The notes below the pieces were generated by a model. That model did not search any database and was not told the DNA's origin. It saw only the letters and a program-made list of their open reading frames with translations. From a virus (Duplodnaviria > Caudoviricetes), in the IMG/VR virus record IMGVR_UViG_3300001528_000580, positions 320,001-384,000 of that record: DNA of 64,000 nucleotides; one strand, given 5' to 3'. The position numbers were made by a program, and so were the translations under genes. Shown here one piece after another: positions 1 through 21,834 of the stretch; position 1 is the first letter of the stretch, and each line of letters opens with the position of its first letter.

Positions 1-1472
1 TCTATCATATCAACTTTTTCTCCATTTGATACATTAAAACCTATATTAGAATCTGGTGATAACATTTGCAATTCTTTCAATTCTGAATTAGGCTCATATC
101 CACCATTTTCTAACAATTGTTTAAATGGTTCAACTACTGAATCAACAACAATAGAAAATCCAATTGATTCATCTTTAGTTAAATGTAAATCTTCAAATGG
201 TTTTCTTAATGTTTTAAGTAATGCAATACCACCGCCAGGAACCATACCCTCTTCAACAGCAGCTCTTGTGGCACTTAAAGCATCATCAACTCTATCTTTT
301 CTTTCCTTCAATTCAATCTCGGTAGTAGCACCAACATTTATAACAGCAATTCCACCTGTTAATTTTGCAATGCGTTCTTTCATCTTTTCAATATCGTATG
401 GTGAATTAGATGATTCAATTTGACTTCTAATTGCTTTAACTCTATCCATTATTGCTTCTGGTGTACCTTTTCCATCAACAATTACAGTATCACCTTTAGA
501 TACAACTACTTTATTCGCTCTGCCTAAATCTGTAATTTCTGCATTTTCTAATTTCTTTCCCAAATCATCTGTAAAGCATGTTGCTCCTGTCAATGTAGCA
601 ATATCAGCCAACACTTCTTTCCTTCTATCTCCAAAATAAGGAGCTTTTACAGCACATGATCTTAATGAACCTCTCATTTTATTCATTACTAATGTACTCA
701 AAACTTCTCCTTCACAGCCATCTGATATAATCAATAATGGCTTTGATTCTTTTGAAACTAATTGTAAAATTGGTAAAACTTCTACCAATGAATTTATCTT
801 TTTATCTACGACTAAAATAAAAGCATCATCAAAATTAACTGTTTGATTCTCTGGATTTGTCACAAAATATGGTGATAAATAACCCTGATCAAATTGCATA
901 CCCTGTATAATATTTAAAGATGTTTCAGTTGAACCTGATTGATCTACTGTAATAGTACCATCTTTCCCTACCTTATCCATTGCCTCTGAAATAATATGAC
1001 CAATTTCAGTATCGCCATTAGCTGAAATTATTGCAATTTGTTCAATTTGTTCTCTTGTATTAACAGGAATACTAAACTCATATAATCTTGATACAATTTC
1101 TTTTACTGCATAATCTATACCTCTCTTTATTTCCATAGGATTTGAGCCAGCAGTAACATTTTTTAAACCATTTTTTAAAATAGATTCTGATAAAACTGTA
1201 GCAGTCGTTGTTCCATCTCCTGCAATATCAGCGGTTTTACCTGCAACCTCTTTAACCATTTGTGCTCCAATATTTTCATACGGATCATCAAGAAACACTT
1301 CTCTTGCTACTGTAACTCCATCCTTTGTTATAATAGGGAAGCCATATCCTCTTTCAATAACAACATTCCTGCCCTTCGGTCCCAAAGTTGTTTTAACTGC
1401 TTTACTTAGTTTTTCAACTCCTTTTAATAACTTTTTTCTAACTTCATCACTGTATTCAATTTCTCTTTTCAT
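1..1472 (-). CDS. groEL: Chaperonin GroEL (3' end runs off the window)
   Basis: Not in the ORF track; translated by hand from ATG at 1472: MKREIEYSDEVRKKLLKGVEKL..TLGPKGRNVVI..ITKDGVTVA..GDGTTTATVL..GMQFDQGYLSPYF..AAVEEGMVPGGG. Confidence 0.98.
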   Translation of the reverse strand, partial: MKREIEYSDEVRKKLLKGVEKLSKAVKTTLGPKGRNVVIERGYGFPIITKDGVTVAREVFLDDPYENIGAQMVKEVAGKTADIAGDGTTTATVLSESILKNGLKNVTAGSNPMEIKRGIDYAVKEIVSRLYEFSIPVNTREQIEQIAIISANGDTEIGHIISEAMDKVGKDGTITVDQSGSTETSLNIIQGMQFDQGYLSPYFVTNPENQTVNFDDAFILVVDKKINSLVEVLPILQLVSKESKPLLIISDGCEGEVLSTLVMNKMRGSLRSCAVKAPYFGDRRKEVLADIATLTGATCFTDDLGKKLENAEITDLGRANKVVVSKGDTVIVDGKGTPEAIMDRVKAIRSQIESSNSPYDIEKMKERIAKLTGGIAVINVGATTEIELKERKDRVDDALSATRAAVEEGMVPGGGIALLKTLRKPFEDLHLTKDESIGFSIVVDSVVEPFKQLLENGGYEPNSELKELQMLSPDSNIGFNVSNGEKVDMI

Positions 1473-1494
1473 ATATATTTATATCTCCATTTTA

Positions 1495-1782
1495 TTATTT
1501 TATTACAGCTAAAATTTCATTCGCATTAACAATTCTAAATGTTTCATCTGAATCTTTTATTTCATATCCACTGTGTTTACCTATAACAACAACATCTCCA
1601 ATCAATATGTTTTTAATTGGTATTAAGTCTCCATTAGCATTATAACCTCCTTCTCCTAATTCTACAACTTCAAAACTTACTGGTTGAGTTGCTGAATTAT
1701 CTGGAATTATAATTCCACCTACGTTATTTTCTTTTTTAATTTCCTTTAATAAAACTCTGTTGCCTATTGGTTTTACACTCAT
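1495..1782 (-). CDS. groES: Co-chaperonin GroES
   Basis: VKPIGNRVLL, GGIIIPD mobile loop; AAGGAG RBS; directly upstream of groEL. Confidence 0.96.
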   Translation of the reverse strand: MSVKPIGNRVLLKEIKKENNVGGIIIPDNSATQPVSFEVVELGEGGYNANGDLIPIKNILIGDVVVIGKHSGYEIKDSDETFRIVNANEILAVIK

Positions 1783-1816
1783 AAAATAATCTCCTTAGTT
1801 TTTGATTTTGATAATA

Positions 1817-1833
1817 AGCATGTTGTATGCCAA
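1817..1833 (-). promoter_or_regulatory. Sigma54-type -24/-12 promoter of groES-groEL
   Basis: Minus strand TTGGCATACAACATGCT has the exact GG-N10-GC spacing of TGGCAC-N5-TTGC, about 35 nt upstream of the groES start. Confidence 0.65.
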
Positions 1834-1927
1834 CTTTAATAACGCAAATACAAAATATTATCTTTGTTGTTTTTGAGTCATTATGTCACAACTTTGTCAC
1901 ACTTGTGTCTATATTATCTATTTATAT

Positions 1928-1955
1928 AATATAACACACAAAAATAAAAAATCAA
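1928..1955 (-). promoter_or_regulatory. Sigma70-like promoter (TTGAnn-N16-TATATT family)
   Basis: TTGATT-N13-TGT-TATATT; the same spacing recurs at 8 other intergenic sites. Confidence 0.7.
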
Positions 1956-1956
1956 A

Positions 1957-4900
1957 TTAATTTATAAAAAAGTTCCAACCTGAATTTAATAACTTATCAG
2001 TTATATCACTTGATATATCATAATATGGTGGAATAGGCTTGTTTCTACAAATAAATTTCTTGTTATTTTCATTATTTATATCAATCAATTTTGTTAATAT
2101 TTTTATAATATCATCGTATAATAAATAATTATTACTAATATTTAAATATATTAATTTATTACTAAAATTAACATCAAACCTATTAATAAAATTATCTGTA
2201 ACATCAATATAACTCAAGTTTTCATTTTTGTCAAGATATATGGTTCTTAAATTATTATTATTACAAACAACTTTATTTAAATTTGCACAATTATAAATAA
2301 ACATACTATTCAATTGACATTTTTCAATCACTAATTCATTAAGATTACAATTATCTATAGTTAATGAAAAAATATCTATATTATTAATTTCGACACGATT
2401 ATTTAAATGACATGTAGTTAATATCAATTGCTTTGTTTTATTTAAAATATTTTCTGGAAAATATATTATATCATTAATATTTTTTAAATCAATAGTCCTT
2501 GCAAAGTCAATTTTTAATTTTTTGAAAATATCCATAATATTATTACAATTATCAAATGATAATTTAGATAGATTATTATTTAATAAATTAATTTTAATAT
2601 TATTACAATTTTTAAACTGTATTTCATCTAAAAAGTTATTACATAAATTTACATTTAATAAATTATCAAATGATGAAAATGAGATATTATTTAATAAATT
2701 ATTAGATAAGTCAATATCAGAAATTTCTTTATTTAAATAAATAGATGTTAATTTATTATTAGATGCATATAATATCTTTTGCGTTCCATTCATAACATCA
2801 AGATTGGAAATATTATTATAACTACAATCAATTTTTTCTATTTTATCTGAATAAATGATCAATGATATTAAATCGTTATTAGCACAATGTAAATTTACCA
2901 AATTTTTATCATAAGTTACATTTAAAATAGTCAATTTATTATTTGAACAATTTAAATTATTTAATGATGGAATATTATTCCTTGATAAATTATTATTATT
3001 TTTTACTTTTTCATTGTTATTATAAAAATCTAAATATTTTAAATTACAATTATTACAATATAATTCTTTAAGACAATTATTATTGCAAGAAATATATTCT
3101 AAATATTTTAAATTAGATAAATTCAAATTGGTTAAATAATTATTATTGCAACTTAATAATAACAATCCATCATTATTATTAACTATTAAAGTTTCTAATT
3201 TTTTATTATTACATTCTATTTTAATCAATTTATTATTAGATACATCAATATAATTAAGATTAGAAGCATAATTATTTAATCCAATAACTTCATTTTCTAT
3301 TAAATTATTATTTACATCTAATTTAACTAATTGATTTAAATTACTAATATTAAATGATGATAATTTGTTATTGCTGCATATTAACTCTATTAAATTTTTA
3401 TTATCAGATATAATTAACTCATTTAATAAATTATAAGAACAATCTAAATATTTTAATGATGTTATATTCATTATATTTAATGATGGTAAATAATTATTAT
3501 TTAAAAACATGCTTTCAATAATATTTGAATTACTTAAATTAATATAATCTAATCTATTAAAACTAAAATCAATATATTTTAACTTACTTTTATTACTCAA
3601 ATCTATATGTTTAATCAAATTATTTCTACCATCTATATATTCTAAATTTATATTATGATTTAAATCAATAAAAATAACAGAATTATTATAAAATTTAAAT
3701 ATTTTCAATGCAGGAGAAAGAGAATAGTCAAAATTACTAATTTTATTATCATTACAGATAATTTCTTCTAATTTTCCAGCAAAAGGAGTATTCAATTTAA
3801 ACAATTCATTAAATGATATATCAACAGTTAATAATTCCATATTAGTTGACAAATCAATTTTAGCTATTTTATTATAAGATAAATTCAACTGTTTTAATAA
3901 AAAAGAATTTCTAAATTCTGCTATCTTTAATTTATTATTGTTTAAAACTACACTTTCTAATTTAGGACAATCATTTGCATAAAATTCTTCTAATCCTACA
4001 TTCGGTTTAACAATACTTGTTATATCAGTTCCACTTACATTAACAATTTTAAAATCATCAACATTTGTAAATCCTATAATATCTTCGATTAAATTATAGG
4101 ATATATCTAAATTAATTAGTGAATTGATATTTGTTAAATCTAAATCTTTAATATTATTATGACTACAATTTAATGTTACTAATTTTGTTAATCCTGTTAA
4201 ATCTAATTCACTTATATCATTATAACTAATATCCAAAGTTGTTAAGTTTTCATTATTATATATCTTAAAATCTTTTAATGAACCATTTGTTAATATAAAT
4301 TCAGTTATTTTATTATTATCAATATATAATTTTATTATTGATTTACTTAAATTATCTAATGTAATTATATTATTAAAAGATAAATAAACCTCCTCTAAAA
4401 ACACATTATTAACCAAACTCAAATTAGATACATTATTATATATATTTCTGATAATAATAGAATCAACTGATTTATAATTATCATATAAATATATTGATGT
4501 AATATTATTATCTTGAGAATTATATGATGCAATACTTAATTCACTTCCATCAACAAATGTAATATATGGTTCATATTTGTTATAAAAAGCCTTTTCTTTA
4601 ATATTATCTGAAAAATTTACAATTGTTAAATAACTAATAATATTAACATATGTTACTTTTTCTCCACCACCATCCTCGCTAGAAATAAAAGAAACAAGTT
4701 CTATATTATCGTTTTCTACGCCATTATAAACAACACCTATATCAATATAATTACCATTATACTTTACCTGATCTTTTTCAATTCTATTTTGATTATATCT
4801 TAAAAATTCATTATTTGATAATAATACCTTAAAATCTTCTGATGTCATACCTATGTCAGCATAATAACTTATATTATAAACACTAGATTTATTTAGTATT

Positions 4901-5223
4901 TTATTATATTTTAAATTTGAATTTTCTACATTTAAATATATTAACTTTTCACAATTATTTATACCATTTAAATCAGATAATAAATTATAAGAACAATCCA
5001 AGTATTTTAAATTAACACATTTTGATAAATCAATATTAGTCAATAAATTATGATGACAAATCAAAACTTCAACAGAACTTGGTATATTAAATTCAAAAAT
5101 TTGATTATCTGAACAATCAATATATTTTAGATTATCATTCAATAAGGAATCAATATTAACTAATGATTGTCCAGAGCAAATTAATTTCTCTTCATCTGTA
5201 TAATCATTCTCACTTATCATCAT
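1957..5223 (-). CDS. Large leucine-rich repeat protein
   Basis: Dozens of LxxLxCxxNxLxxLxl repeats of about 21-22 aa. Confidence 0.93.
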   Translation of the reverse strand: MMISENDYTDEEKLICSGQSLVNIDSLLNDNLKYIDCSDNQIFEFNIPSSVEVLICHHNLLTNIDLSKCVNLKYLDCSYNLLSDLNGINNCEKLIYLNVENSNLKYNKILNKSSVYNISYYADIGMTSEDFKVLLSNNEFLRYNQNRIEKDQVKYNGNYIDIGVVYNGVENDNIELVSFISSEDGGGEKVTYVNIISYLTIVNFSDNIKEKAFYNKYEPYITFVDGSELSIASYNSQDNNITSIYLYDNYKSVDSIIIRNIYNNVSNLSLVNNVFLEEVYLSFNNIITLDNLSKSIIKLYIDNNKITEFILTNGSLKDFKIYNNENLTTLDISYNDISELDLTGLTKLVTLNCSHNNIKDLDLTNINSLINLDISYNLIEDIIGFTNVDDFKIVNVSGTDITSIVKPNVGLEEFYANDCPKLESVVLNNNKLKIAEFRNSFLLKQLNLSYNKIAKIDLSTNMELLTVDISFNELFKLNTPFAGKLEEIICNDNKISNFDYSLSPALKIFKFYNNSVIFIDLNHNINLEYIDGRNNLIKHIDLSNKSKLKYIDFSFNRLDYINLSNSNIIESMFLNNNYLPSLNIMNITSLKYLDCSYNLLNELIISDNKNLIELICSNNKLSSFNISNLNQLVKLDVNNNLIENEVIGLNNYASNLNYIDVSNNKLIKIECNNKKLETLIVNNNDGLLLLSCNNNYLTNLNLSNLKYLEYISCNNNCLKELYCNNCNLKYLDFYNNNEKVKNNNNLSRNNIPSLNNLNCSNNKLTILNVTYDKNLVNLHCANNDLISLIIYSDKIEKIDCSYNNISNLDVMNGTQKILYASNNKLTSIYLNKEISDIDLSNNLLNNISFSSFDNLLNVNLCNNFLDEIQFKNCNNIKINLLNNNLSKLSFDNCNNIMDIFKKLKIDFARTIDLKNINDIIYFPENILNKTKQLILTTCHLNNRVEINNIDIFSLTIDNCNLNELVIEKCQLNSMFIYNCANLNKVVCNNNNLRTIYLDKNENLSYIDVTDNFINRFDVNFSNKLIYLNISNNYLLYDDIIKILTKLIDINNENNKKFICRNKPIPPYYDISSDITDKLLNSGWNFFIN

Positions 5224-5238
5224 ATTTATATTTCACTT

Positions 5239-6132
5239 TTATGCTAAAAATTTACGCCATGCTCTTAAAAATTGTGTTTTATACATTTCACAATCCTGTA
5301 AAATTGTATCAAGATTTTGTGTAGAATCCATGCCACCCCAAATTTGAATAGGATTAAATAGTTTAAATGAGTTAAAACCTAAATGTTCTCCCCAAAATTT
5401 AGTAGCTAATTCATTTGATAATGTAACATATGGAACAACTACTTTCAATCCAACATCTAACATATTATATTTGGAATATTCTTCAAATGTTATTGGTTTT
5501 TTATCTATTAATGTTCCTGTACATAAAATTAATACATCCATATCTTTAAACTCTATTCCTAATTTAGATTTTAAAGCTGTAACTGTTGTAAGTAATGGTA
5601 TAACTTCAATCAAGCCACCATCAACAATACATTTGTTTTTATATTCAATAGCTTCAAAATAAGTTGGAGCTGCTGATGTCATTAAAGAAAGTAACTCAAG
5701 AGTAACATCATCATCTTCTGATTTTGATATATTATCAAAAACTTTATATTGATCATCTGTTAAATTTAATGTTGGAATAATTAAATTCAAATGTGAATAT
5801 TTTTTTCTAACATCTTCTAAAATCATATTCCCAGTATACATATTAATAAAACTTTTTAATTGATCATTAGAATATGTTGGACAAGCTAATGGATTAACCA
5901 TAGCCATAAATCTTTTTTTGAAAATTTTATCACCGCCTTCGATAAATCCGTCTAATACATCTTGTGGTTTAGCACCAGCAGCATATGAATTTGCTAATAT
6001 ACCACCAATAGAACAACCTGATAATGTATCTATATCATTTATAAAATCACCAATAAAAGATAAAAATGCTGCTGGAATTATACCAAAAATTCCGCCACCA
6101 GCAATTACAAGAACTTTATGCTTTTTACTCAT
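5239..6132 (-). CDS. Patatin-like phospholipase
   Basis: GGGIFG oxyanion motif, GCSIG nucleophile, SAAPTYF, DGG catalytic Asp. Confidence 0.93.
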   Translation of the reverse strand: MSKKHKVLVIAGGGIFGIIPAAFLSFIGDFINDIDTLSGCSIGGILANSYAAGAKPQDVLDGFIEGGDKIFKKRFMAMVNPLACPTYSNDQLKSFINMYTGNMILEDVRKKYSHLNLIIPTLNLTDDQYKVFDNISKSEDDDVTLELLSLMTSAAPTYFEAIEYKNKCIVDGGLIEVIPLLTTVTALKSKLGIEFKDMDVLILCTGTLIDKKPITFEEYSKYNMLDVGLKVVVPYVTLSNELATKFWGEHLGFNSFKLFNPIQIWGGMDSTQNLDTILQDCEMYKTQFLRAWRKFLA

Positions 6133-6145
6133 TTTATGTTACTCC

Positions 6146-6400
6146 TTAATCCATAATTTCTATAAATGATTTCATTTCATCTGTTTTCAAGCATTCTTTA
6201 ATAGTAAAAGAAACAATTTCACTTATTTCTTTATTATCTACTTTTTGATCTAAATAAACATCCATTTTATCAGGTGCATTTTTACAAGCATCTACTATTC
6301 CAACTATTCTTATTTTTTGATCTGTTGGTATATCTGAACTAATACAACCAGAAACAAACAAAACAGATATACTACATAAAAGCAATAAATATTTTTTCAT
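6146..6400 (-). CDS. Small lipoprotein (start revised to MKKYLL at 6400)
   Basis: Signal peptide MKKYLLLLCSISVLFVSG-C with lipobox; the longer ORF-track start overlaps a terminator hairpin. Confidence 0.75.
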   Translation of the reverse strand: MKKYLLLLCSISVLFVSGCISSDIPTDQKIRIVGIVDACKNAPDKMDVYLDQKVDNKEISEIVSFTIKECLKTDEMKSFIEIMD

Positions 6401-6443
6401 TTTTCCATACTCCCTATGTTTTGATATATAAAAAATATAAAAA

Positions 6444-6469
6444 AAAGCCAGATGATAATCATCTGGCTT
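6444..6469 (-). terminator. Rho-independent terminator
   Basis: AAGCCAGATGAT/ATCATCTGGCTT hairpin followed by a T run on the minus strand. Confidence 0.75.
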
Positions 6470-6491
6470 AAATATTTTAATTAACAATTTT

Positions 6492-6887
6492 TTAATCAAG
6501 TAGATCTGTAATAAAACTCTTTTTTGTTAAATCTTCTTTATTTTTATTTGCTCTATTTTCTGCTGAAACAACTATGTTTTTACTAATAAAAACAATTTTT
6601 TCTCCTAAATCTTTATAATATAATTTAGTAATATATCCAATTCTATTTCCCAATTGAAAATCTTCTAATCTTCCAAAAATATAAGTTTTTGTTGTTTTGA
6701 CAGTTGAAAATTTTTCAACTTCCTTTTCAGTAAATAACAAGCAACGTTCATCTTTTCCATTATCTGCTTCAACCCAACAAGAATAATATTCCTTATTTGC
6801 ATTACTAAACTTAGGTATTTCAGTATTTTTTACTCTAATTAAATATCCAGCTTTTATTTTCATATCTTTATCAATTATTTCTGCCAT
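6492..6887 (-). CDS. Hypothetical protein (start revised to MAEIIDK)
   Basis: AGGAGA RBS before ATG at 6887; phage-like composition. Confidence 0.75.
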   Translation of the reverse strand: MAEIIDKDMKIKAGYLIRVKNTEIPKFSNANKEYYSCWVEADNGKDERCLLFTEKEVEKFSTVKTTKTYIFGRLEDFQLGNRIGYITKLYYKDLGEKIVFISKNIVVSAENRANKNKEDLTKKSFITDLLD

Positions 6888-6960
6888 AATATCATCTCCT
6901 TCTTTTATATATAAAAAAAATAAAAAATTTTTTATTTTTTTCTTTGTAAAAGGTGGTGTT

Positions 6961-7668
6961 ATGTTTTCACAAAAAATAAAAACTTTCTTAAATAACCACA
7001 ATCCAGAATATAAGTGGAAATTATTTATAATATTTTTATCATTTATGGTAGTTATAAATAGTTTATTTTTATATATAATTCCAGGAACCGATAAAGTAGT
7101 AATAGATCTAATACACTACATTGATTATTTTATTTGTTTTAATTTTTTTATTGATTTTATATGGAGATTATTCACAAGCAAAAACAAATTAAAATTCTTT
7201 TTTACTATTGGATGGATTGATTTATTAGCAAGTATTCCGTATTTGTATTTTTTAAGAATGTGTAAATGTTTTTATGTTTTTTCAATAATAAGAGAATTAA
7301 GATCTTTACAAAGAATATTATCATTTTTATTTAAAAGCAGAATTTCAACAACATTATTATTTTCATTGTTAATGTTTATCACTAGTATATTGGTTTCATC
7401 TATATTGGTATTACATTTTGAACATAATGCTCCAAATGCAAATATACATACAATTACTGGTGCAATGTGGTGGTCTATAAATCTGGCAAGCACTTGTGGA
7501 AATACAGAATTATTTCCTGTTACTGTTTATGGAAAAATGGTTGGAGGTTGTTTAATGGTAATAGGCTATGGATTATTTTCTATGAATGCAGGTGTATTAT
7601 CTTCATGGTTTATGAATAATCTAAATGAATTACATAAAGAAGAAAATAAAGAAGATAATAATACATAA
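6961..7668 (+). CDS. 6-TM ion-transport / K+-channel-like protein with atypical filter
   Basis: S1-S4-like segment (IDLLASIP..LRMCK), pore helix AMWWSINLASTCGNTELFPVTVYGK; only convincing plus-strand gene. Confidence 0.85.
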   Translation: MFSQKIKTFLNNHNPEYKWKLFIIFLSFMVVINSLFLYIIPGTDKVVIDLIHYIDYFICFNFFIDFIWRLFTSKNKLKFFFTIGWIDLLASIPYLYFLRMCKCFYVFSIIRELRSLQRILSFLFKSRISTTLLFSLLMFITSILVSSILVLHFEHNAPNANIHTITGAMWWSINLASTCGNTELFPVTVYGKMVGGCLMVIGYGLFSMNAGVLSSWFMNNLNELHKEENKEDNNT

Positions 7669-7744
7669 TGGTGGCTATGGTTGGGATCGAACCAACGACA
7701 TCTTCCTTATGAGGGAAGCGCAACTTCCTCTGTGCTACACAGCC
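7669..7744 (-). tRNA. tRNA-Met (CAT), elongator-like
   Basis: GGCTGTG..CTTCC-CTCATAA-GGAAG..GGTTCGATCCC..ACCA. Confidence 0.9.
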
Positions 7745-7749
7745 TTTTT

Positions 7750-7823
7750 TGGAGCACCATACCAGAATCGAACTGGTGCTTTAACATTGGCAATGTCATT
7801 TGCTACCGCTACAACAATGGTGC
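7750..7823 (-). tRNA. tRNA-Gly (GCC)
   Basis: TGACA-TTGCCAA-TGTTA arm, TTCGATT T-loop, U73, CCA. Confidence 0.92.
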
Positions 7824-7835
7824 AATTATCTCGGA

Positions 7836-7912
7836 TGGAGCCATCGACAGGACTCGAACCTGCACAAAGCGGTTTTGCAGACCGCCCCCTTATTCCATTC
7901 AGGCACGATGGC
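7836..7912 (-). tRNA. tRNA-Cys (GCA)
   Basis: GCGGT-CTGCAAA-ACCGC arm, U73, CCA. Confidence 0.93.
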
Positions 7913-7929
7913 ATATAAATAATTTATAT

Positions 7930-8005
7930 TGGTACTCACGATTGGATTTGAACCAATGACCTTTTCCGTGTTAAAGAAACCATCTAACCGCTGATATACG
8001 TGAGC
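7930..8005 (-). tRNA. tRNA-Val (AAC)
   Basis: TTTCT-TTAACAC-GGAAA arm, GGTTCAAATCC T-arm, ACCA end. Confidence 0.88.
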
Positions 8006-8013
8006 ATATTATA

Positions 8014-8172
8014 TTACCATTTTATTAAATTTTTTTCAATATTATTTTCTATAATTTCTATTTCTTTTTTATATTTTTCCTCGTATTTCTTATCAATAGT
8101 TTTACCATATTCCTTCAAAGAAATTCCATGTTCATCTTCAAATCTTTTCAATATTTCTTTATTTAAACTCAT
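8014..8172 (-). CDS. Small charged hypothetical protein (52 aa) inside tRNA array
   Basis: AAGGAG RBS; MSLNKEILKRFEDEHGISLKEYGK..NLIKW*; shorter than any ORF in the track. Confidence 0.7.
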   Translation of the reverse strand: MSLNKEILKRFEDEHGISLKEYGKTIDKKYEEKYKKEIEIIENNIEKNLIKW

Positions 8173-8200
8173 AATTATATGCTCCTTCAAAATATATAAA

Positions 8201-8276
8201 TGGTTGGCATGGAAAGAGTCGAACTTTCGTTTAGTGTGTATCAGACACTCGTCTTAAACCGTTGGACGACACGCCA
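8201..8276 (-). tRNA. tRNA-Ile (GAT), atypical body
   Basis: AGTGT-CTGATAC-ACACT arm, U1-A72 pair, ACCA end. Confidence 0.82.
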
Positions 8277-8286
8277 TCATAATTTA

Positions 8287-8362
8287 TGGTGCTTGTGGTA
8301 GGATTTGAACCTACGACCTTTTGTTTATCAGACAAACTATCTAACCACTGATATACACAAGC
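8287..8362 (-). tRNA. tRNA-Ile (GAT)
   Basis: TTTGT-CTGATAA-ACAAA arm, ACCA end. Confidence 0.9.
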
Positions 8363-8442
8363 ATATAAAATAGAAGTACTTGCTTTATCTCTTTCGATTA
8401 GGCTCAGCCTCATCAACATGAGTTTCCTTTCCTTCTATAAAC

Positions 8443-8517
8443 TGGTGCGCTCTGAGAATTTTGAAATCTCGACTCCCACCTTAAAAGGGTAGTGCTCTGC
8501 CTCTGAGCTAAGAGCGC
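8443..8517 (-). tRNA. tRNA-Lys (TTT)
   Basis: CTACC-CTTTTAA-GGTGG arm, TAGCTCAG D-arm, ACCA end. Confidence 0.9.
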
Positions 8518-8528
8518 AATATTATATT

Positions 8529-9455
8529 TTAATTATTACAATTTTCTTCAATATATTTTTTAAGTTTTTCCATCTCTATAAAAGTATTTTTCATTAAATC
8601 AATCCATTTTATTCTATAAACTTTCCAACCATGTTCAATTGTATATAAATCTCTAACTTTGTCGTGTTCTATTGCTTCTTGTGTTCTATAGTGTTGACTA
8701 CCATCTATTTCTACATCTATTTTTTCATTAACAAAAGCAAAATCAAAAAAATATTTACCAAATGGCATTTTTTCTTTTATTAAATAATTATCAATAATAT
8801 CAAATTCATATAACATTCTAATAAAAAATTTCTCTGGATAACTTCTATGATTAACATCTAAATTTTTAAAACTCCATCCACGATGACGCAATTCTTCATG
8901 TGCCTTTTTTAAAGAAATTGATATTTTTTGTTTTGTTTGTTCACTATGTTTGTGACACGTTGGTTTTAATTCACCACTTTTATATTTTTCTTTCAATTTT
9001 TCACTTTGCACTCTAATACGTTCATCATTGTTTTTATTCAATCCTTTATTCCAAGTATTTTTTTCTCCGATTTTAACTTGTTCATTATATATTATCAAAC
9101 CAGAATTATTATGTTTTCCAATATTAGATAATCTGTTTTTTTCAATATTACTTGGACAACTATTAGGTGATTTGCAACAACACCATTTACCATTTTTAAG
9201 TTTATATTTTGCTGCAGCTCCACAATAAAAACAAACTTCTGATAATCCAATATCCGATTTTTTCCTAATTTCAATAGGAATATCTTTCAACTTATTAATT
9301 CCACATTCTTTTAATTTTTGCCATTTTTTTGATATTTTTAAACGTATTTTTTCTTTAATAGCCTTGCATTTTCTAGCATTATTTTCACAACACCATTTGC
9401 CATTTTTTAATTGATATTTTGCGTTTTCACCACAATAAAAACAAATATTATCCAT
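8529..9455 (-). mobile_element. Free-standing homing-endonuclease-like gene (two Cys-rich repeats, NUMOD3-like motif, DUF559/Vsr-like nuclease)
   Basis: Two CFYCG..YxLKNGKWCC repeats; HSEQTKQKISIS; SYPEK..YFFDFA..VEIDGSQH..DKVRD..GWKVYRI. Confidence 0.85.
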
Positions 9456-9490
9456 TTTATATTTCCTTTACATAAATAATTCCTATTTAT

Positions 9491-9519
9491 ATAATAGAAA
9501 ATATAAAAAAATAAGTCAA
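9491..9519 (-). promoter_or_regulatory. Sigma70-like promoter of the endonuclease gene
   Basis: TTGACT-N17-TATTAT. Confidence 0.6.
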
Positions 9520-9546
9520 GTATCCTATCCAATTGATCTATGAATA
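9512..9546 (-). pseudogene. Possible 5'-half tRNA remnant (Arg-like D-loop)
   Basis: ATATTCA-TA-GATC-AATTGGATA-GGAT-A-CTTGA-CT; stops at the anticodon loop; no 3' half found. Confidence 0.4.
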
Positions 9547-9550
9547 TATT

Positions 9551-9626
9551 TGGCATCTCCAACGGGGAACGATCCCGTATTTGTAACTTGAAAGGCTACT
9601 GTCCTAACCAATTAGACGATGGAGAC
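9551..9626 (-). tRNA. tRNA-Glu (TTC)
   Basis: GTAGC-CTTTCAA-GTTAC arm; T-loop ATCGTTC; GCCA end. Confidence 0.9.
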
Positions 9627-9663
9627 AAATTAAAACCAATTAACAAAAATACTAATAAAATCT

Positions 9664-9739
9664 TGGCAGGGCGCACAGGACTCGAACCTGCATCTTACGG
9701 TTTTGGAGACCGCTGACTTACCAATTAGACCAACGCCCT
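9664..9739 (-). tRNA. tRNA-Trp (CCA)
   Basis: AGGGCG..GCGGT-CTCCAAA-ACCGT..GCCA. Confidence 0.94.
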
Positions 9740-9751
9740 ATCACTAATTCT

Positions 9752-9770
9752 TATTCAATTTTCAAATAAC
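9752..9770 (-). promoter_or_regulatory. boxA-like antitermination element
   Basis: GTTATTTGAAAATTGAATA resembles the rRNA-operon boxA form GTTCTTTGAAAACTGAA. Confidence 0.55.
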
Positions 9771-9795
9771 ACGATAATATTAAATTTATCTAAAT

Positions 9796-9871
9796 TGGTG
9801 GCGGAGGTCGGTAACGATCCGACTACACATGGATTTTCAGTCCATTGCTCTACCATTTGAGCTACTCCACC
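9796..9871 (-). tRNA. tRNA-Phe (GAA)
   Basis: ATGGA-CTGAAAA-TCCAT arm; T-loop ATCGTTA; ACCA end. Confidence 0.93.
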
Positions 9872-9873
9872 AT

Positions 9874-9910
9874 AAAACAAAAGGAGCGGATTTTTTATTA
9901 TCCGCTCCCT
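9874..9910 (-). terminator. Attenuator terminator immediately 5' of first tRNA
   Basis: GGAGCGGAT-8 nt loop-ATCCGCTCC then TTTTGTTTT, ending 2 nt before tRNA-Phe. Confidence 0.88.
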
Positions 9911-9940
9911 ACACTTTTATAACTAAATTTATAATATCAG

Positions 9941-10039
9941 TTATGAATATAAATGACGTGCATGAGCAGACAAACGGCGTTTAAACCATTCACCACAAAT
10001 CTCAAATTTTTCACAAATCATTTTACGCATAACTAACAT
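9941..10039 (-). CDS. Putative leader peptide of the tRNA operon (32 aa)
   Basis: GAGG RBS; MLVMRKMICEKFEICGEWFKRRLSAHARHLYS*; its 3' part can pair with the terminator 5' arm. Confidence 0.8.
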   Translation of the reverse strand: MLVMRKMICEKFEICGEWFKRRLSAHARHLYS

Positions 10040-10072
10040 TTTAAAACCTCTTATTTTTCTTTCAATAACTAT

Positions 10073-10100
10073 AATATAACACTATTTTTTTATAATTCAA
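10073..10100 (-). promoter_or_regulatory. Promoter of leader/tRNA operon
   Basis: TTGAAT-N13-TGT-TATATT. Confidence 0.75.
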
Positions 10101-10295: not shown

Positions 10296-11030
10296 TTAAA
10301 AAAGTTCTTGTTGAATAGATAAATTATCCAAAATATCTTTAGCAAGGCTAAAAAAATCTTTATTTATTTCACAACCAATAAAATTCCTATTATTATTTAA
10401 TGATGCAACACCAGTACTACCACTACCCATGAATGGATCAAAAATAGTATCGTTTTCCTTTGTATGCAATTTAATAAAATCACTTAATAATGCAACAGGT
10501 TTTTGTGTAGGATGAATTCTCTCTTTTTTAGATGGAGAAGAATATCTTTTTGTTTTTAATTTTAAACTATAATCTGCTTCATTATTAAATGTAGAACCAC
10601 TTCCATGAACATAAACAATAAATTCTAGATCTGAAACATATTTACCAAAACAAAATGGAATAGGATTCAATTTACTCCACACCAATAATGTTGTAGGAAT
10701 ATTTAAATTCTCAAAAAAACTCATAGTTTTTGATACTTGATTATTTGAACAAAATATCAAAAAATTTGGAATATCACATAGTTTTAACATATTGGAAAAA
10801 CATTTTTCATAATCAAAACCATCACATATAAAATCAATATGTTTATCTTTAACTAACTTCCTTGTTCCAAAATCATTATTTTTTGTTCCACCATGAATGT
10901 CCATTTCATAAGGTGGATCAGTTATAATACAATCTACTTTTACGCCTCGATAAATCATATCATCCATTATTTTAAAACAATCATCATTATATATTGTATA
11001 ATCTGTCATAATTACTTTATTTATCTCCAT
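10296..11030 (-). CDS. N6A/N4C DNA methyltransferase (beta class)
   Basis: ITDPPY ... HPTQKP ... DPFMGSGSTG. Confidence 0.95.
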   Translation of the reverse strand: MEINKVIMTDYTIYNDDCFKIMDDMIYRGVKVDCIITDPPYEMDIHGGTKNNDFGTRKLVKDKHIDFICDGFDYEKCFSNMLKLCDIPNFLIFCSNNQVSKTMSFFENLNIPTTLLVWSKLNPIPFCFGKYVSDLEFIVYVHGSGSTFNNEADYSLKLKTKRYSSPSKKERIHPTQKPVALLSDFIKLHTKENDTIFDPFMGSGSTGVASLNNNRNFIGCEINKDFFSLAKDILDNLSIQQELF

Positions 11031-11341
11031 TTTCTAGAATGTTGTTCAAAACAATTCTTAGTTGATAAAACTCCTTTTAAATCTACTTTTTGAAATACAG
11101 TTTTTCCACAATCGTATTTATATTCAATAGTATAATCATCAATAATTATTGTTTCTATTTTTCCATTTTGACAATGACAACAATTTATCTCTATAAAGCT
11201 ATCAAACTTTTTGCTTTTCCATAATGTTATAAAAAATAATATTTTAACATAAAAAAACTTTATTTTTTCTTTAAAATTCAATTTTTTATAAGAACGACTT
11301 GCATTACTAATATCACATTTATTATTAATGATTACATTCAT
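11021..11341 (-). CDS. Hypothetical protein
   Basis: AGGAGA RBS, co-oriented, Cys-rich. Confidence 0.7.
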   Translation of the reverse strand: MNVIINNKCDISNASRSYKKLNFKEKIKFFYVKILFFITLWKSKKFDSFIEINCCHCQNGKIETIIIDDYTIEYKYDCGKTVFQKVDLKGVLSTKNCFEQHSRKWR

Positions 11342-11355
11342 ATATTCTCCTTATG

Positions 11356-11739
11356 TTATGATTCGGAAATGAATAACAAATCAATATTGTTATATTTTAA
11401 TTTCATATTTTTAATATCATTATATAATTCTTTCAATTTATTATAATCAAAATTTATTAAATTGACTTTATATTCATTATATATTTTACCATATAGTTGA
11501 TTCATCTTTGAATATTCAAAAAATTCACAATCAACATCACTATATTTATTTTGATTTTCATATATTATCATCAATACCACACCATATAAAAATTTGGTAA
11601 TATTATATTTATCTGAATCATTTAATTCGTGTTCTTCAACATACATATATGTTGTTTCATTTTCATCATATTCTGGTTGAGCTTTATAATCATCCCAAAT
11701 ATTAACTGTTATTTCATTATAATCATCAATTTTTTTCAT
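11356..11739 (-). CDS. Hypothetical protein
   Basis: AAGGAG RBS, co-oriented. Confidence 0.75.
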   Translation of the reverse strand: MKKIDDYNEITVNIWDDYKAQPEYDENETTYMYVEEHELNDSDKYNITKFLYGVVLMIIYENQNKYSDVDCEFFEYSKMNQLYGKIYNEYKVNLINFDYNKLKELYNDIKNMKLKYNNIDLLFISES

Positions 11740-11752
11740 TATTAAACTCCTT

Positions 11753-12520
11753 TTAAAATAATTCTCCTTGAACGATATGATTATTTAATCTATTTGCAAT
11801 GATGTCACAATACTTTTCTTCTTTTTCTATTAAGACACATCTTCTATTAGTATTCATACATGCAATTCCAGTTGTACCGCTACCAGCACAAAAATCTAAT
11901 ATTAAATCTCCTTCGTTTGTATAAGTCTTGATTAAATATTCTAATAAAGCAACTGGTTTTTGGGTAGGATGCAATCCTATTTCTGTATTAAATTTTTGCC
12001 ATGATGAAGGGACTCTCAATTCAGTTAGTTTATTATCTTTTCTTTCATCAAATTTTCTATAATTTTCGGTTTCTGTAATAAAATCACACTTATATTTAGA
12101 CCTTAATTTACCATTTTCTGATCTTTCTTGCATTTGTTTATTATATGTCCATTTCCCATTACTAAAAAATAATATTTGCTCGTGTTCTTTCATTGGTTCT
12201 CTAACTGTATTAGCAAAATTACTACCTCTATTTTTTATCCATATCCATTCATGTTTAAACATTTTAGGATTACTCATAACTAATGCAGAAGAAAATGGTT
12301 GAGAACCATGTAATAAAATAGAAGCATTATCTTTCATAATTGGCAATAAAGCACTCCACATTTCATTAAATGGTATTATAGCATCCCATTTACAACTAGT
12401 AGTTCCATACGGTGGATCTGTTATACAAGCATCAAAAGTAACATTAAGTTTAGGCATAATTTCTAAACAATCACCATAATATAATTTAACTAATTTATTT
12501 TCAAAATATTTATTATTCAT
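11753..12520 (-). CDS. N6A/N4C DNA methyltransferase (beta class)
   Basis: ITDPPYGTT..HPTQKP..DFCAGSGTTG. Confidence 0.95.
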   Translation of the reverse strand: MNNKYFENKLVKLYYGDCLEIMPKLNVTFDACITDPPYGTTSCKWDAIIPFNEMWSALLPIMKDNASILLHGSQPFSSALVMSNPKMFKHEWIWIKNRGSNFANTVREPMKEHEQILFFSNGKWTYNKQMQERSENGKLRSKYKCDFITETENYRKFDERKDNKLTELRVPSSWQKFNTEIGLHPTQKPVALLEYLIKTYTNEGDLILDFCAGSGTTGIACMNTNRRCVLIEKEEKYCDIIANRLNNHIVQGELF

Positions 12521-12521
12521 T

Positions 12522-13274
12522 TCAAATTATATAGCTTCCTAGTCTATTTTTTATGATTTCACAATATTTTTCTTCCTTTTCTATCAAAACACATTTTCTT
12601 GATGTATTAATACAAGCCATACCAGTACTACCGCTACCTGCAAACGAATCCAAAACCAGATCATTATTATTAGTTGATACATTTATTAAAAACTCTATTA
12701 ATTTAACACTTTTTTCATTGGGATGAATAGCATTAGATGCACGTTTTTCTGTTGCATATGAAACTTCTGTTTTAATAAAATTAGGATATTCATAAGTATA
12801 TTCATTTGGTTTTTTATTTCTTTTGTCATTAAACCATTCTTTAGATGTTTTAAAAAAATCAACATTATTTAACGGCTTTCCTCTTCCTTTTGAAAATACT
12901 AAAATTGGTTGAAATTGGAATCCAAAATTATTTTTTGCCCTTTTTGCTCCATTATTAAACGATCTTGTTGCAATAATGTTTTTATAAGTAAATCCATTTT
13001 CTATACCTGTAAATATCCAATTATGTAATGTCTTTACACCAACAAATAAAAATAAAAAACAATCATCTTTTAAAATATTATACCAACACATAAACCATTT
13101 AGGCATTTCTTCTAGTATATAATCATTTGTATCATTATAAAAATCATTTTTAAATCCTACTCCATATGGAGGATCAGTTATAATACAATCAAATTTTTTA
13201 TCAAAATTATACATTATACTTATACAATCATCGTTATATAATTCTATATTTTTATTACTAAAAACACAATTCAA
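12522..13274 (-). CDS. N6A/N4C DNA methyltransferase (beta class)
   Basis: ITDPPY..HPNEK..DSFAGSGSTG; TTG start with AAGGAG RBS. Confidence 0.94.
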   Translation of the reverse strand: MNCVFSNKNIELYNDDCISIMYNFDKKFDCIITDPPYGVGFKNDFYNDTNDYILEEMPKWFMCWYNILKDDCFLFLFVGVKTLHNWIFTGIENGFTYKNIIATRSFNNGAKRAKNNFGFQFQPILVFSKGRGKPLNNVDFFKTSKEWFNDKRNKKPNEYTYEYPNFIKTEVSYATEKRASNAIHPNEKSVKLIEFLINVSTNNNDLVLDSFAGSGSTGMACINTSRKCVLIEKEEKYCEIIKNRLGSYII

Positions 13275-13339
13275 TTTATAAACTCCTTGTAATTATTTAT
13301 TTTAATAATATAGCATAAAAATACATAAAATCAACATAT

Positions 13340-14368
13340 TTATATTTTTTTTCTAAAGATAAAGATTGGTTCATATTTATATTTATCTTTATGACTTAAA
13401 CTTGACAAACTATATTTCATTATTTTCATTAAATCAAAATTGTTTTTTTGAGCAACATTTAAAAAATCATTTTCTAAGTTATTATAAGAACGTACATTAG
13501 CTATATTAATAGCTAAAATACCTTTAGAATTTAATCCATAATAACAATTTTTTAATGTTTTACTCAAAAATTGTTCTATCCATTCCTCCTTTGAAGAATA
13601 TTTTAAATAAGATTGTGTTAATTCATTGGAATATCTTTCTGTATCAAAATAAGGTGGACTTGTAAAACAAAAATCCAAAGAATTTTTTTCAGGTATAAAA
13701 TCTTCTGAGCCAACTTTATATAATTCTACTTTAGTATGATATAAAGGAAATAAATAATCATCTTGATTATATCTACAATCTTCTGATATTTTTTGTAAAC
13801 CATTGAATGTTTGAGTACATGGTTCTGTTCCAATATATTTTTTTACTTCTGATTTTATTGCACCAAGTAATCTACCACCATATCCACAAGACATATCCCA
13901 AACAACTTTATCTTTAGCAAATAATTTATATATCAATCCGGCGGCAGTTGGTCTAAAATTAGAAACACTCTGTACACCAGAAAATATTTTTAACATTTTT
14001 CTAATACCATTATCAGATATATTATCTCCAAACTTTATTCTTTTATCTATAACCTGTCTAAAGGTATTATCATCAAGAAAAGCCTCTAGTGGTGTTTTAA
14101 AGCCGTTACAGTTGACATTATAAGCATGTGGCATATAAGACCAACACAAAGCTAAACCATGCATGGCTTGCCCTATTTCATCGTTATTCAACAATGTATA
14201 ATCATCAAATGACATGAATTTATCAAATTCATTTTTTCTCCATTGTTCATCTGTTGGGAAATATGGAAATCCATGTTTTCTATAATATTTAAAAACATTT
14301 TCTTTATAATTTTCTAATTCTTCGTCAGAAAATTTATTCCATTGATTTTTATTTAAAAAAATATTCAT
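13340..14368 (-). CDS. DNA methyltransferase with SPPY motif (probably N4-cytosine)
   Basis: SAM motif WDMSCGYGGRLLG precedes catalytic FTSPPYF. Confidence 0.88.
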   Translation of the reverse strand: MNIFLNKNQWNKFSDEELENYKENVFKYYRKHGFPYFPTDEQWRKNEFDKFMSFDDYTLLNNDEIGQAMHGLALCWSYMPHAYNVNCNGFKTPLEAFLDDNTFRQVIDKRIKFGDNISDNGIRKMLKIFSGVQSVSNFRPTAAGLIYKLFAKDKVVWDMSCGYGGRLLGAIKSEVKKYIGTEPCTQTFNGLQKISEDCRYNQDDYLFPLYHTKVELYKVGSEDFIPEKNSLDFCFTSPPYFDTERYSNELTQSYLKYSSKEEWIEQFLSKTLKNCYYGLNSKGILAINIANVRSYNNLENDFLNVAQKNNFDLMKIMKYSLSSLSHKDKYKYEPIFIFRKKI

Positions 14369-14372
14369 AAAA

Positions 14373-15095
14373 TTATTTATTTTTATTTAATCTATCAGTA
14401 ATAATATTGCAATATTTTTCTTCTTTTTCGATAAGAATACAATTTCTATTAGTATTCATACAAGCAACACCTGTCGTTCCACTACCTGCGCAACTGTCTA
14501 AAATTAAATCTCCTTCATTAGAACCTAACATAATTATTCTTTCTAATAATCTTACTGGTTTTTGAGTAGAATGATCAACTTTTTCTTTACTATTATGGGG
14601 TAATGCAGGTATATCTGTCCAAACATCAGAAAGTGAAACTCCATTCTTTAAAATTCCACTTTTATACTCTTTTCTATTAGAATTAATTTGAATTTTTATA
14701 TTATTAAATGTTGAATTATTTCCTTTAGAATAAAAACAAATAGGTTCATATCCACTACTAAGTGCCATCCCTCTTGTATTGTTGAATGCTCTTTTTCTAG
14801 CCCAAATAATAATTCTTTTTTCAATAAAATATTTGTCAAGAATACAAGCAATCTTTCTATTATATTGTCTACCTGTAAACAAAAAAATATTTTTATTTGG
14901 CTTTAAGATTCTTTCATATTCAATAACATTACTTTCAATCCATTTTAAATATTCAACTTCATTATCCCAAAAATTGTCCCATTTATCTTTCACAACATTA
15001 CAATATGGTAAATCAACAATTATACAATCAATACATTCATTATCTAATGATTTAAGAACATTGAGACAGTCATCATTATAAATTTCAAAATTCAT
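14373..15095 (-). CDS. N6A/N4C DNA methyltransferase (beta class, DLPY)
   Basis: IVDLPY..HSTQKP..DSCAGSGTTG. Confidence 0.93.
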   Translation of the reverse strand: MNFEIYNDDCLNVLKSLDNECIDCIIVDLPYCNVVKDKWDNFWDNEVEYLKWIESNVIEYERILKPNKNIFLFTGRQYNRKIACILDKYFIEKRIIIWARKRAFNNTRGMALSSGYEPICFYSKGNNSTFNNIKIQINSNRKEYKSGILKNGVSLSDVWTDIPALPHNSKEKVDHSTQKPVRLLERIIMLGSNEGDLILDSCAGSGTTGVACMNTNRNCILIEKEEKYCNIITDRLNKNK

Positions 15096-15153
15096 TATTA
15101 TATTACTCCATTAATTTTAACTTATAATATAACATATATTTTGAAAAAATCAA

Positions 15154-15861
15154 CTAAATATTAATAAATCTGTTTTTTATTATTTCACAATAATTTTCAT
15201 CTTGTTCAATTAATATGCATTTTCTTCCTAACTTCATACAAGCAATCCCTGTTGTGCCACTTCCTGCAAATAAATCTAAAACAGTATCACCTTCATTTGT
15301 AAAAATATTAATAATTCTTTCTAATAATTGAACAGGTTTTTGGGTAGGGTGTTGAACTCTTTCAGGAGACCACGGAACAATCGGAGATATATCTTGCCAA
15401 ACATTTGTTAATTTTCTGAACTCACAACCATTTTTTCTACCAATAGTTCCACCTGTTTTTTTCTTTATATTAGATAGTATTGGATTAAAAATATAATTAT
15501 CACCTTTGGAAAACCATAAAATATCTTCTCTTGTAGAAACAAAATTCTTTTTTGCTCCTCTTCCTTTTATTCTATCCCATATAATCCAATTATTAAATTT
15601 ATATCCATTATTCTTAAAACATGAAATAGCATAGTTAACATTACTCCAACCTTGAAAAACTAATAAATTACCATTTTCTTTTAATGATTTATCAAAAATA
15701 GGATAGTATTGATTAATATCAAAATTACTATCCCATTTATTATTTTCAAAATTAATTCCATATGGTGGATCAGTTATAATACAATCTACTTCACTACCTA
15801 CATAATCAATACAATTTCCACAATACAATTTTACATTGTCATTTTCATAATATAATTTCAT
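15154..15861 (-). CDS. N6A/N4C DNA methyltransferase (beta class)
   Basis: ITDPPY..HPTQKP..DLFAGSGTTG. Confidence 0.95.
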   Translation of the reverse strand: MKLYYENDNVKLYCGNCIDYVGSEVDCIITDPPYGINFENNKWDSNFDINQYYPIFDKSLKENGNLLVFQGWSNVNYAISCFKNNGYKFNNWIIWDRIKGRGAKKNFVSTREDILWFSKGDNYIFNPILSNIKKKTGGTIGRKNGCEFRKLTNVWQDISPIVPWSPERVQHPTQKPVQLLERIINIFTNEGDTVLDLFAGSGTTGIACMKLGRKCILIEQDENYCEIIKNRFINI

Positions 15862-20289: not shown

Positions 20290-21834
20290 TTAACTATTTT
20301 CAACTATATTTTGAATATAGCTGATAACCGAATCATTCCAACCAAATATCTGATGAATATTATATTCAACACACTGTTCTTCTGACATAGGTCTCTGATC
20401 ATATCCATCACATCTGATAACAAATGCACAAGCATTCGGATATTTCTTCTTATATTTTATCCATGATTCTATCCACGATTCATTACCACCATTATAACTT
20501 CTACGATTATAACTTTCAGTATCAGTAACGAAAACGCAATAATCACGTTCAATATTGTTTTTTAACATATAGTCTAAGGCACAATTCATATTTGTACCAC
20601 CGCCACCCAAAGATTTAATGTAATTCATATGAGAAATTACAGAATCTTTCTTTGGAATTTTATATGGTTTCAATGAAGAAGCCCACGGCAATACAATTGC
20701 ATCATCAACACCTTTAACGAGAAAACCAGTAAACATTGCAGAAATATCCAAATAACTCAATGTACTTCTTGCAGAATATCCACCAAGTCTACCATTCATG
20801 GAACCTGAAACATCAGGACAAATTGCCCATGTTTTTTCGTTAAACTTATTCCAATCATATTGAATAATATAATCATCCAATACATCTGCTAACACATCGC
20901 CAACCTTGTTAGTAGAAGAAATATTTTTCCATGTCATAAACAATCTGAAAGGAAATACTTTTGCCTTCTTCAAATTCTCTACTGTAAATTTTTGTTTTGC
21001 ATAATCATAGGTATTAACACCAACTCTTTCAAATTTGTTAAGATATTTCAAAAATCTCATTACAGGAGAATTTTTAGCAATAGCATCCCAAATATTTTTG
21101 TCAAATTTATCATAATATGCAGTCAAACTATCTACATCAAGACGATAATTTAAAATATTTTCTTTTACTTGTTCATAATTTCCTTCATTCAACAATTTTG
21201 GAATTTCTTCAAATGCAGAAAATTCTTTAAATTCATCATATGCCTTCTGAATATTTACATCAGTAGCACTATCAGTTTTTCCTCTCAAAATATAAGAATA
21301 AATACAATTATTATCTTTTGGTCTTGACAATCTAATTGCATCACCAATAGCTTTACGGTATTTCAACGCATAATATGGATTTACCTTTTTCTTCAACCAA
21401 TCATTAATAGCAGTTTTGATCGAACGCCCAAACCCTCTTGTTTTTCTTGTCAAATCAATAAAATTTTCCAAGTCATCGCCAGTATAAATAACATGTTCAA
21501 AACACTTTTTAAACAAATTGGTATCTTTTTGAGAAAGATAAACAAGACCCAAAATTGGAAATGCCCTTATATAACCAACATTCCTGCCAATAACAATTGC
21601 TTTTGCAAGATCAGATGCTTCGGATCTTTTTATCAAATCAATCGCTTCATCAATAATATCTTTTTGAGATACATAAAATGTTCTTCCCAAAACACCAGTC
21701 ATTGCATATTGAATTAATCTTTCTCTATCACTTATTTTCCATGCTGGTGCTCCTTCAAAAGTAATTGTGTCGGTTGTTTTCAAAACATCATTTTCAACCT
21801 GTTCAACTCTTGAAATTACATTCTTCATTTTCAT
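20290..21834 (-). CDS. Ro60-like TROVE/vWA RNA-binding protein
   Basis: TFYVS, GFGRSIKTAINDW, KVFPFR (TROVE); DVSGSM, GGGTN, VTDTE (MIDAS). Confidence 0.9.
   Translation of the reverse strand: MKMKNVISRVEQVENDVLKTTDTITFEGAPAWKISDRERLIQYAMTGVLGRTFYVSQKDIIDEAIDLIKRSEASDLAKAIVIGRNVGYIRAFPILGLVYLSQKDTNLFKKCFEHVIYTGDDLENFIDLTRKTRGFGRSIKTAINDWLKKKVNPYYALKYRKAIGDAIRLSRPKDNNCIYSYILRGKTDSATDVNIQKAYDEFKEFSAFEEIPKLLNEGNYEQVKENILNYRLDVDSLTAYYDKFDKNIWDAIAKNSPVMRFLKYLNKFERVGVNTYDYAKQKFTVENLKKAKVFPFRLFMTWKNISSTNKVGDVLADVLDDYIIQYDWNKFNEKTWAICPDVSGSMNGRLGGYSARSTLSYLDISAMFTGFLVKGVDDAIVLPWASSLKPYKIPKKDSVISHMNYIKSLGGGGTNMNCALDYMLKNNIERDYCVFVTDTESYNRRSYNGGNESWIESWIKYKKKYPNACAFVIRCDGYDQRPMSEEQCVEYNIHQIFGWNDSVISYIQNIVENS

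Follow-up and report, generated by a model that had tools for sequence, protein, structure and literature searches.

Why phages carry tRNA genes, and when these tRNAs are made, is a long-standing question. Transcription of pheST is controlled by a ribosome-mediated attenuator. The same kind of control acts on the amino-acid operons trp, his, leu, thr, pheA, ilvGMEDA and ilvBN (PMC1183508). The phage locus described here resembles these systems in its short leader open reading frame (ORF) with regulatory codons and its predicted, mutually exclusive antiterminator and terminator. An anti-antiterminator like theirs is predicted for the window type and for L025 but is absent in L008. It is also predicted to share with trp a leak at the stop codon that sets basal read-through (PMC1183508). 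Unlike the amino-acid attenuators, which control biosynthetic enzymes or a synthetase, the phage unit would control tRNA genes. Its leader contains codons of nine to ten amino acids, with one to three codons each, whereas the amino-acid attenuators contain runs for one to three amino acids. The unit is encoded by a phage, and its output would be the very molecule that is sensed. The initial annotation read the locus as having the trp/his/ilv/pheST layout. The anatomy and the alternative helices agree with this reading, but the controlled genes are tRNAs, and the strict definition of an amino-acid operon attenuator (trpL, hisL, ilvL or pheM, with genes that make or charge the amino acid) is not met. 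The phage unit works like the trp, his, thr and ilv attenuators and is not one of them. The comparative evidence for this is strong, and there is no experiment.

T-box riboswitches bind uncharged tRNA directly and have one specifier each. The phage unit is similar to them in that antitermination would respond to tRNA status, and its leader has no Rfam match to a T-box structure. In Anabaena, the trn operon and L-arrays are induced by translational stress and repressed by TrcR (PMC8421152, PMC10272220). Like the Anabaena array, the phage array would be a spare set of tRNAs that is silent until translation is impaired. Control in Anabaena is exerted on initiation by a protein repressor and is not codon-specific, unlike that of the phage unit. 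According to the available part of one report, phage tRNAs provide rescue from the anticodon-nuclease defences P2-OLD, PARIS AriB and retron Eco7 PtuAB; that part describes rescue and no sensor that switches the phage tRNAs on (PMC12445682). Replacement of cleaved host tRNAs is a likely purpose for the array described here as well. The initial annotation knew of no leader-peptide attenuation of phage tRNA arrays, and we likewise found no description of such control of tRNA genes in the full-text literature, in which subscription papers are mostly not covered.

Organization of the phage locus

The window analyzed is a stretch of 64,000 nucleotides (positions 320,001 to 384,000 of IMG/VR record IMGVR_UViG_3300001528_000580). 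It belongs to the genome of a giant phage (G000), which is complete at 440,868 bp, carries direct terminal repeats and has a G+C content of 25%; its tRNA genes number at least 33 and are spread over several clusters. Database searches found no close cultured relative of this phage. The locus lies on the minus strand. Its promoter (10071..10100, with the −35 at 10100) is of the sigma70 type, with a −35 and an extended −10 that follow the phage consensus. The score of 24.6, obtained with a matrix made from the phage's other promoters, is near the top genome-wide. The phage promoters are sigma70-like with an extended −10, and a domain search found neither an RNA polymerase beta domain nor a sigma70 region-2 domain in the genome; both points suggest that host RNA polymerase is probably used. 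In some Firmicutes transcription is uncoupled from translation, and since the host is unknown, this weakens the case for a switch that depends on coupling.

The Shine-Dalgarno sequence AAGAGG (10047..10052, GAGG at 10050-10047) is 7 nt 5′ of the ATG and is invariant among strains. The leader ORF of 32 codons (9941..10039) has its sensing block at codons 3–20, or 3–22 if Arg is included. It is annotated as a gene in public assemblies, and seven public contigs that encode the identical peptide carry different upstream methylase sets. The intrinsic terminator (9874..9910) consists of an 11-bp stem (9910-9881, −17.7 kcal/mol) and an 8-of-9 U-tract, which ends at 9874, only 2 nt before tRNA-Phe (9871). 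ARAGORN and Rfam place ten tRNA genes behind it. Phe(GAA), Trp(CCA) and Glu(TTC) (9551..9871) are strictly behind the switch and are the genome's only copies of these anticodons. An inserted DUF559 endonuclease gene (8529..9519) follows, and then Lys(TTT), two Ile(GAT), Val(AAC), Cys(GCA), Gly(GCC) and Met(CAT) (7669..8517). The initial annotation had placed every one of these signals correctly on the minus strand, from the promoter and GAGG to the terminator, and its list of tRNAs is complete. At this genome's other tRNA clusters, no leader with a terminator was seen on inspection by eye.

Predicted RNA structures of the leader

The 5′ arm of the antiterminator (9958..9973) spans codons 23–28. 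Its 3′ arm (9898..9914) overlaps the 5′ arm and the loop of the terminator. An inner stem (9919..9944, pairing 9944-9937 with 9926-9919) includes the stop codon; in strain L008 its sequence is altered and still paired. The 5′ arm of a start:stop anti-antiterminator (10028..10039) pairs with 9945-9934 with a probability of about 0.9 in naked RNA. A local hairpin in codons 15–25 (9966..9997) competes for the 5′ arm of the antiterminator in the folding model. Folding of the 201-nt leader, in which the terminator is included, gives z = −5.3. The duplex between ORF and terminator has an energy of −20.6 kcal/mol, which is beaten by none of 3000 genome coding stretches, by 0.13% of codon shuffles and by 2.1% of synonymous recodings.

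The switch was folded as a transcript cut just 5′ of the terminator's 3′ arm, with and without a masked ribosome footprint. The naked RNA makes a long hairpin of codons 1–10 with codons 26 to past the stop, and the terminator arm is free. With the ribosome masked at codons 2–19 the antiterminator forms, consisting of the inner stem and helices of 5 bp and 10 bp; from codon 20 on it no longer does, and with two other footprints this boundary is displaced by one or two codons. In the model the terminator arm is held with −6 to −11 kcal/mol at codons 2–9, −1 to −5 kcal/mol at codons 10–19 and only about −0.5 kcal/mol at codons 20–24, so that the hold drops near the end of the cognate block. A drop at the same place is modelled for L008, for two leaders of the phage contig L326 and for that of L327. 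The 10+5 bp helix (9973-9958 with 9914-9898) and the inner stem proposed in the initial annotation do form in the model. Its claim that a stall anywhere in codons 1–20 frees the antiterminator holds for codons 2–19, strongly for 2–9 and more weakly for 10–19, but codon 20 is marginal. Its set of structures was right for the antiterminator and terminator but missed the anti-antiterminator.

In silico, then, the antiterminator excludes the terminator and is free only for a ribosome in the regulatory codons, and it re-forms at the stop codon. When the masked ribosome occupies the stop codon, the outer antiterminator becomes possible again in the model (−8 kcal/mol), which implies basal read-through. 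At equilibrium the full terminator always wins in the model, and the switch must therefore be kinetic. The anti-antiterminator is present in the window type and in L025, and is lost in the L008/L016 type; the naked RNA of L008 already favors antitermination (−10.2).

Match between leader codons and the tRNA array

Among the first 20 leader codons, 18 are cognate to the array (17/19 without the start codon). Codons 6–20 are 15 consecutive cognate codons, all nine amino acids of the array are represented, and none of codons 21–32 is cognate. These counts are exactly those of the initial annotation. These nine account for 46% of the phage proteome. The binomial probability of 17/19 at genome amino-acid frequencies is 1.2e-4, and random sets of nine amino acids equal the leader match at 3.5e-5. 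A match of 17/19 is reached by 28 of 115,487 genome coding windows, none of which has all nine amino acids. It had also been claimed that the encoded anticodons can read the cognate codons. They do match, but this adds little as evidence, because TTT, ATT, TGT, GGT and GTT are among the commonest codons of the genome anyway.

If Arg is counted, codons 3–22 are cognate without exception (20/20, reached by 0 of 114,991 coding windows), and only Leu2 is unexplained. In the sister strain L017 the position of the DUF559 gene is taken by two tRNA genes, an intact one for Arg(ACG) and an additional one for Phe. L008 and L016 likewise lack the DUF559 gene and carry an Arg-type tRNA and a second tRNA-Phe in its place; the anticodon loop of their Arg gene is altered. 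The ancestral input was probably ten amino acids, since the intact tRNA-Arg(ACG) of the L017 array reads the CGT of codon 5. The nine inputs named at first are all cognate, but the original set was probably larger by one. The L017 contig begins inside the Arg gene, and Arg and leader have never been seen intact on one contig.

Leader–array pairs in other phages

A TAG-recoded relative (L025–L027), whose patatin is 61% identical, carries a leader and array in the corresponding position, upstream of the patatin region. Its array (array B) consists of Gly(TCC), a Tyr(GTA) candidate, Asp, Ala, Ser, Ser, Pro, Ser and Asn, plus Leu(CAA) in L027. The Tyr candidate lacks the D-arm and has only a weak Rfam match, and Asn also has its own promoter-like site. 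Array B is preceded by a promoter, a GAGG site and an ORF of 25 codons (L025:7175-7252), followed by a terminator; the 5′ arm of this terminator pairs with the final codons of the ORF. Codons 4–21 of this leader B are 18 consecutive codons from exactly G, Y, D, A, S, P and N, with all seven used, and the modelled hold dips at codons 14–17. The window's leader (leader A) scores 17/20 on its own array A (19/20 with Arg) and 1/20 on array B, while leader B scores 18/20 on array B and 4/20 on array A. Gly is encoded as GGT in leader A, with Gly(GCC) in the array, versus GGA/GGG in leader B, with Gly(TCC). Several other patatin relatives were left out, being non-syntenic or on contigs that end before the array.

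Further pairs come from a survey of 80 viral loci, sampled by a Tyr anticodon-arm pattern, which gave 62 tRNA clusters. L326 (IMGVR_UViG_3300022917_000008, 330-10100) has three leaders with terminators, each matching the sub-array that follows it (K V R N M E D I A; L S Y; P F T Q H W). L327 (IMGVR_UViG_3300033182_000991, 5057-6010) has one matched leader-terminator with the array E T M G D A P. The longest cognate runs of the six leaders on their own arrays are 15, 18, 13, 11, 12 and 9, compared with at most 6 on any other, and the true assignment of leaders to arrays is the best of 720 pairings. The four pairs of L326 and L327 were noticed partly for their match; the pairing statistic overstates their weight, and they show recurrence, not frequency. 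In most of the 62 sampled clusters no matched leader was seen. Degenerate leader patterns gave no match in viral or metagenome collections, in which near-identical records are possibly missing. The co-variation of leader codons with array content, named as a test in the initial annotation, is thus met in the distant phage with leader B and in four pairs of two more phages. Short ORFs with a terminator before a tRNA array in L281, L345 and L106 are possible further members and were not counted: the candidate at L106 1540-1710 matches poorly and is not conserved in L254, and the arrays behind L281 1-180 and L345 9600-9740 cover most amino acids, which makes a match uninformative.

These pairs bear on the reading of the element as a real switch that gauges translation speed or coupling in general, with single cognate codons mattering little. 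Nine to ten amino acids account for 46–50% of all codons, and with one or two codons per amino acid the response to any single tRNA would be shallow, as inferred from the model in PMC1183508. Such a gauge, however, has no need of disjoint, array-specific codon blocks of the kind seen in leader A, with its single match on array B, or of three different leaders for the three sub-arrays of L326. We consider it very unlikely. The preferred reading remains a leader whose codons are specific to the array that follows.

Strain variation and a promoter-like site behind the leader

Codons 1–21 are identical in DNA in six of six aligned variants. Differences are found in codons 22–24 and downstream, and the helix is mostly kept. 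A change of TCT to TCC converts a U-G pair to C-G, and the window allele is TCT, the weaker one. In L008 the leader change TTG → TCG has its counterpart in an A → G change in the loop of the terminator; together they replace U-A by C-G and alter an amino acid, and the terminator stem has a compensatory G-C → A-U pair. Compensatory changes in the helix, which the initial annotation proposed to look for, are seen in L008. Across the six close variants, however, the helix shows no significant covariation (162/500 shuffles), and a C-A mismatch occurs in L012.

The window allele also enters the argument that the attenuator is inherited and largely bypassed in this strain, with a nearly constitutive array fed by the stop-codon leak and the DUF559 promoter. 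The antiterminator is possible with a ribosome at the stop, TCT weakens the helix relative to TCC, and Arg(ACG) has been lost while the Arg codons remain. The promoter in question is a promoter-like site at 9519 that came with the endonuclease insertion and may feed the last seven tRNAs independently of the switch, so that the claimed control of the downstream operon by the leader stands for Phe, Trp and Glu but is less certain for the others. This site scores only 7.2, far below the 24.6 of the leader promoter, and it is downstream of Phe, Trp and Glu. Moreover, leader, Shine-Dalgarno sequence and terminator are almost invariant among strains despite differing flanking genes. We find a bypassed relic slightly harder still to accept than a general gauge, and retain a working attenuator as the better account.

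Alternative roles of the ORF and the hairpin

The peptide could be a small zinc-finger-like protein (C..C..F..L..HxxH) that is encoded next to an ordinary terminator, and the codon match an accident of composition. Its two Cys and three His are indeed spaced much as in a degenerate C2H2 finger. However, there is no Pfam match, the best score in the Atlas is only 0.75, and the sole other match in the representative library does not align. The Leu of the finger is Ser in five loci, and the motif is missing from leader B and from the L326 and L327 leaders. Genome windows around CxxC motifs have at most 16/19 cognate codons, and because they never reach 17, zinc-knuckle-like composition does not explain the match. 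This explanation is very improbable. Equally hard to sustain is control of pre-tRNA processing or stability, rather than termination, by ribosome position: the hairpin ends 2 nt before tRNA-Phe and adjoins the RNase P site, but it is a canonical GC-rich stem with a U-tract, and in L016 and L025 it is about 40–60 nt from the first tRNA.

Proposed mechanism of control

We favor a ribosome-dependent transcription attenuator that gates the phage tRNA operon, and regard this as very likely. It rests on the observed anatomy, codon–array match and co-variation across phages, and on alternative helices found in silico; translation, coupling, switching in vivo and the trigger are inferred, and there are no expression data. 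Host RNA polymerase would start at the 10100 promoter and a ribosome would translate the leader. If charged, intact cognate tRNAs are plentiful, the ribosome is expected over codons 20–30, where it would cover the 5′ arm of the antiterminator, and the terminator would stop transcription before tRNA-Phe. Scarcity of any one of the nine (ancestrally ten) tRNA species would make the ribosome linger in codons 2–19; the antiterminator would then capture the 5′ arm of the terminator, and the tRNAs would be transcribed. The new tRNAs should then speed reading of the same leader codons, a negative feedback on tRNA supply. Leader RNA that is not translated is predicted to form the start:stop hairpin and leave the terminator free. 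The phage thus probably makes these tRNAs mainly when ribosomes read the leader codons slowly.

The trigger is inferred. The likeliest one is that tRNA molecules are lost, whether to defence nucleases that cleave them, to decay or to over-demand, since extra tRNA would not cure amino-acid starvation. On this basis the phage tRNAs would be an inducible reserve with built-in feedback and not a constitutive supplement, and tRNA-cleaving defences are predicted to trigger the phage's counter-measure themselves. The question is reduced to a simple reporter experiment, and the module of about 200 nt would be a compact, recodable reporter of tRNA depletion. We lean, with less assurance, towards a wider proposal: that programmable leader-peptide attenuators with several inputs serve phages widely as sensors of the tRNA pool, that each tRNA block is switched on when its own species are depleted by host defence nucleases or by demand, and that leader codons are rewritten as arrays are reshuffled. 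Leader sequences would in that case be a record of the tRNAs under threat in each particular host.

Other features of the locus

Just upstream of the leader promoter is a second strong promoter (score 20.9; 10265-10105, minus strand), which drives an uncharacterized structured RNA of about 110 nt without an Rfam match. This RNA has two compensatory pairs among strains, in a 6-bp helix around a GC-rich hairpin. Further upstream, about six DNA methyltransferase-like genes in a row (10296-15861, minus strand) vary in content between strains, and a Ro60/TROVE-like RNA-binding protein is encoded at 20290-21834 (minus strand). A match of P0198 was spurious and driven by repeats.

Within the array, tRNA-Phe (9871-9796) and tRNA-Glu (9626-9551) have the T-loop GATCG instead of GTTCG, and tRNA-Lys (8517-8443) has an atypical T-arm; all three are on the minus strand, and the unusual arms are possibly an escape from tRNA-targeting enzymes. 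Between tRNA-Lys and tRNA-Ile lies an unexplained folded insert of about 75 nt (8440-8365, minus strand); most strains with the DUF559 gene have it, and L008, L016 and L017 do not. The tRNA-Val with the rare AAC anticodon (8005-7930, minus strand) is kept in all strains and is 74% like the neighboring tRNA-Ile(GAT), flanks included. The motif TTTGAAAA(A)TT (9775-9750, minus strand) recurs before other tRNA/tmRNA genes in G000, L016 and L025, shortly after promoters or terminators of tRNA units, and resembles a Firmicutes-type boxA. Directly after the array, some strains only have a potassium-channel gene (6961-7668, plus strand) inserted antisense. Genes of G000 near the leader locus are read under table 11, and relatives use TAG as Gln; a tRNA with a CTA (amber) anticodon is found at G000 256421-256495 (plus strand). 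Both phage groups have a tRNA-Tyr(GTA) without a D-arm and with a long variable region (G000 254461-254553 and L025 7431-7518, both plus strand).
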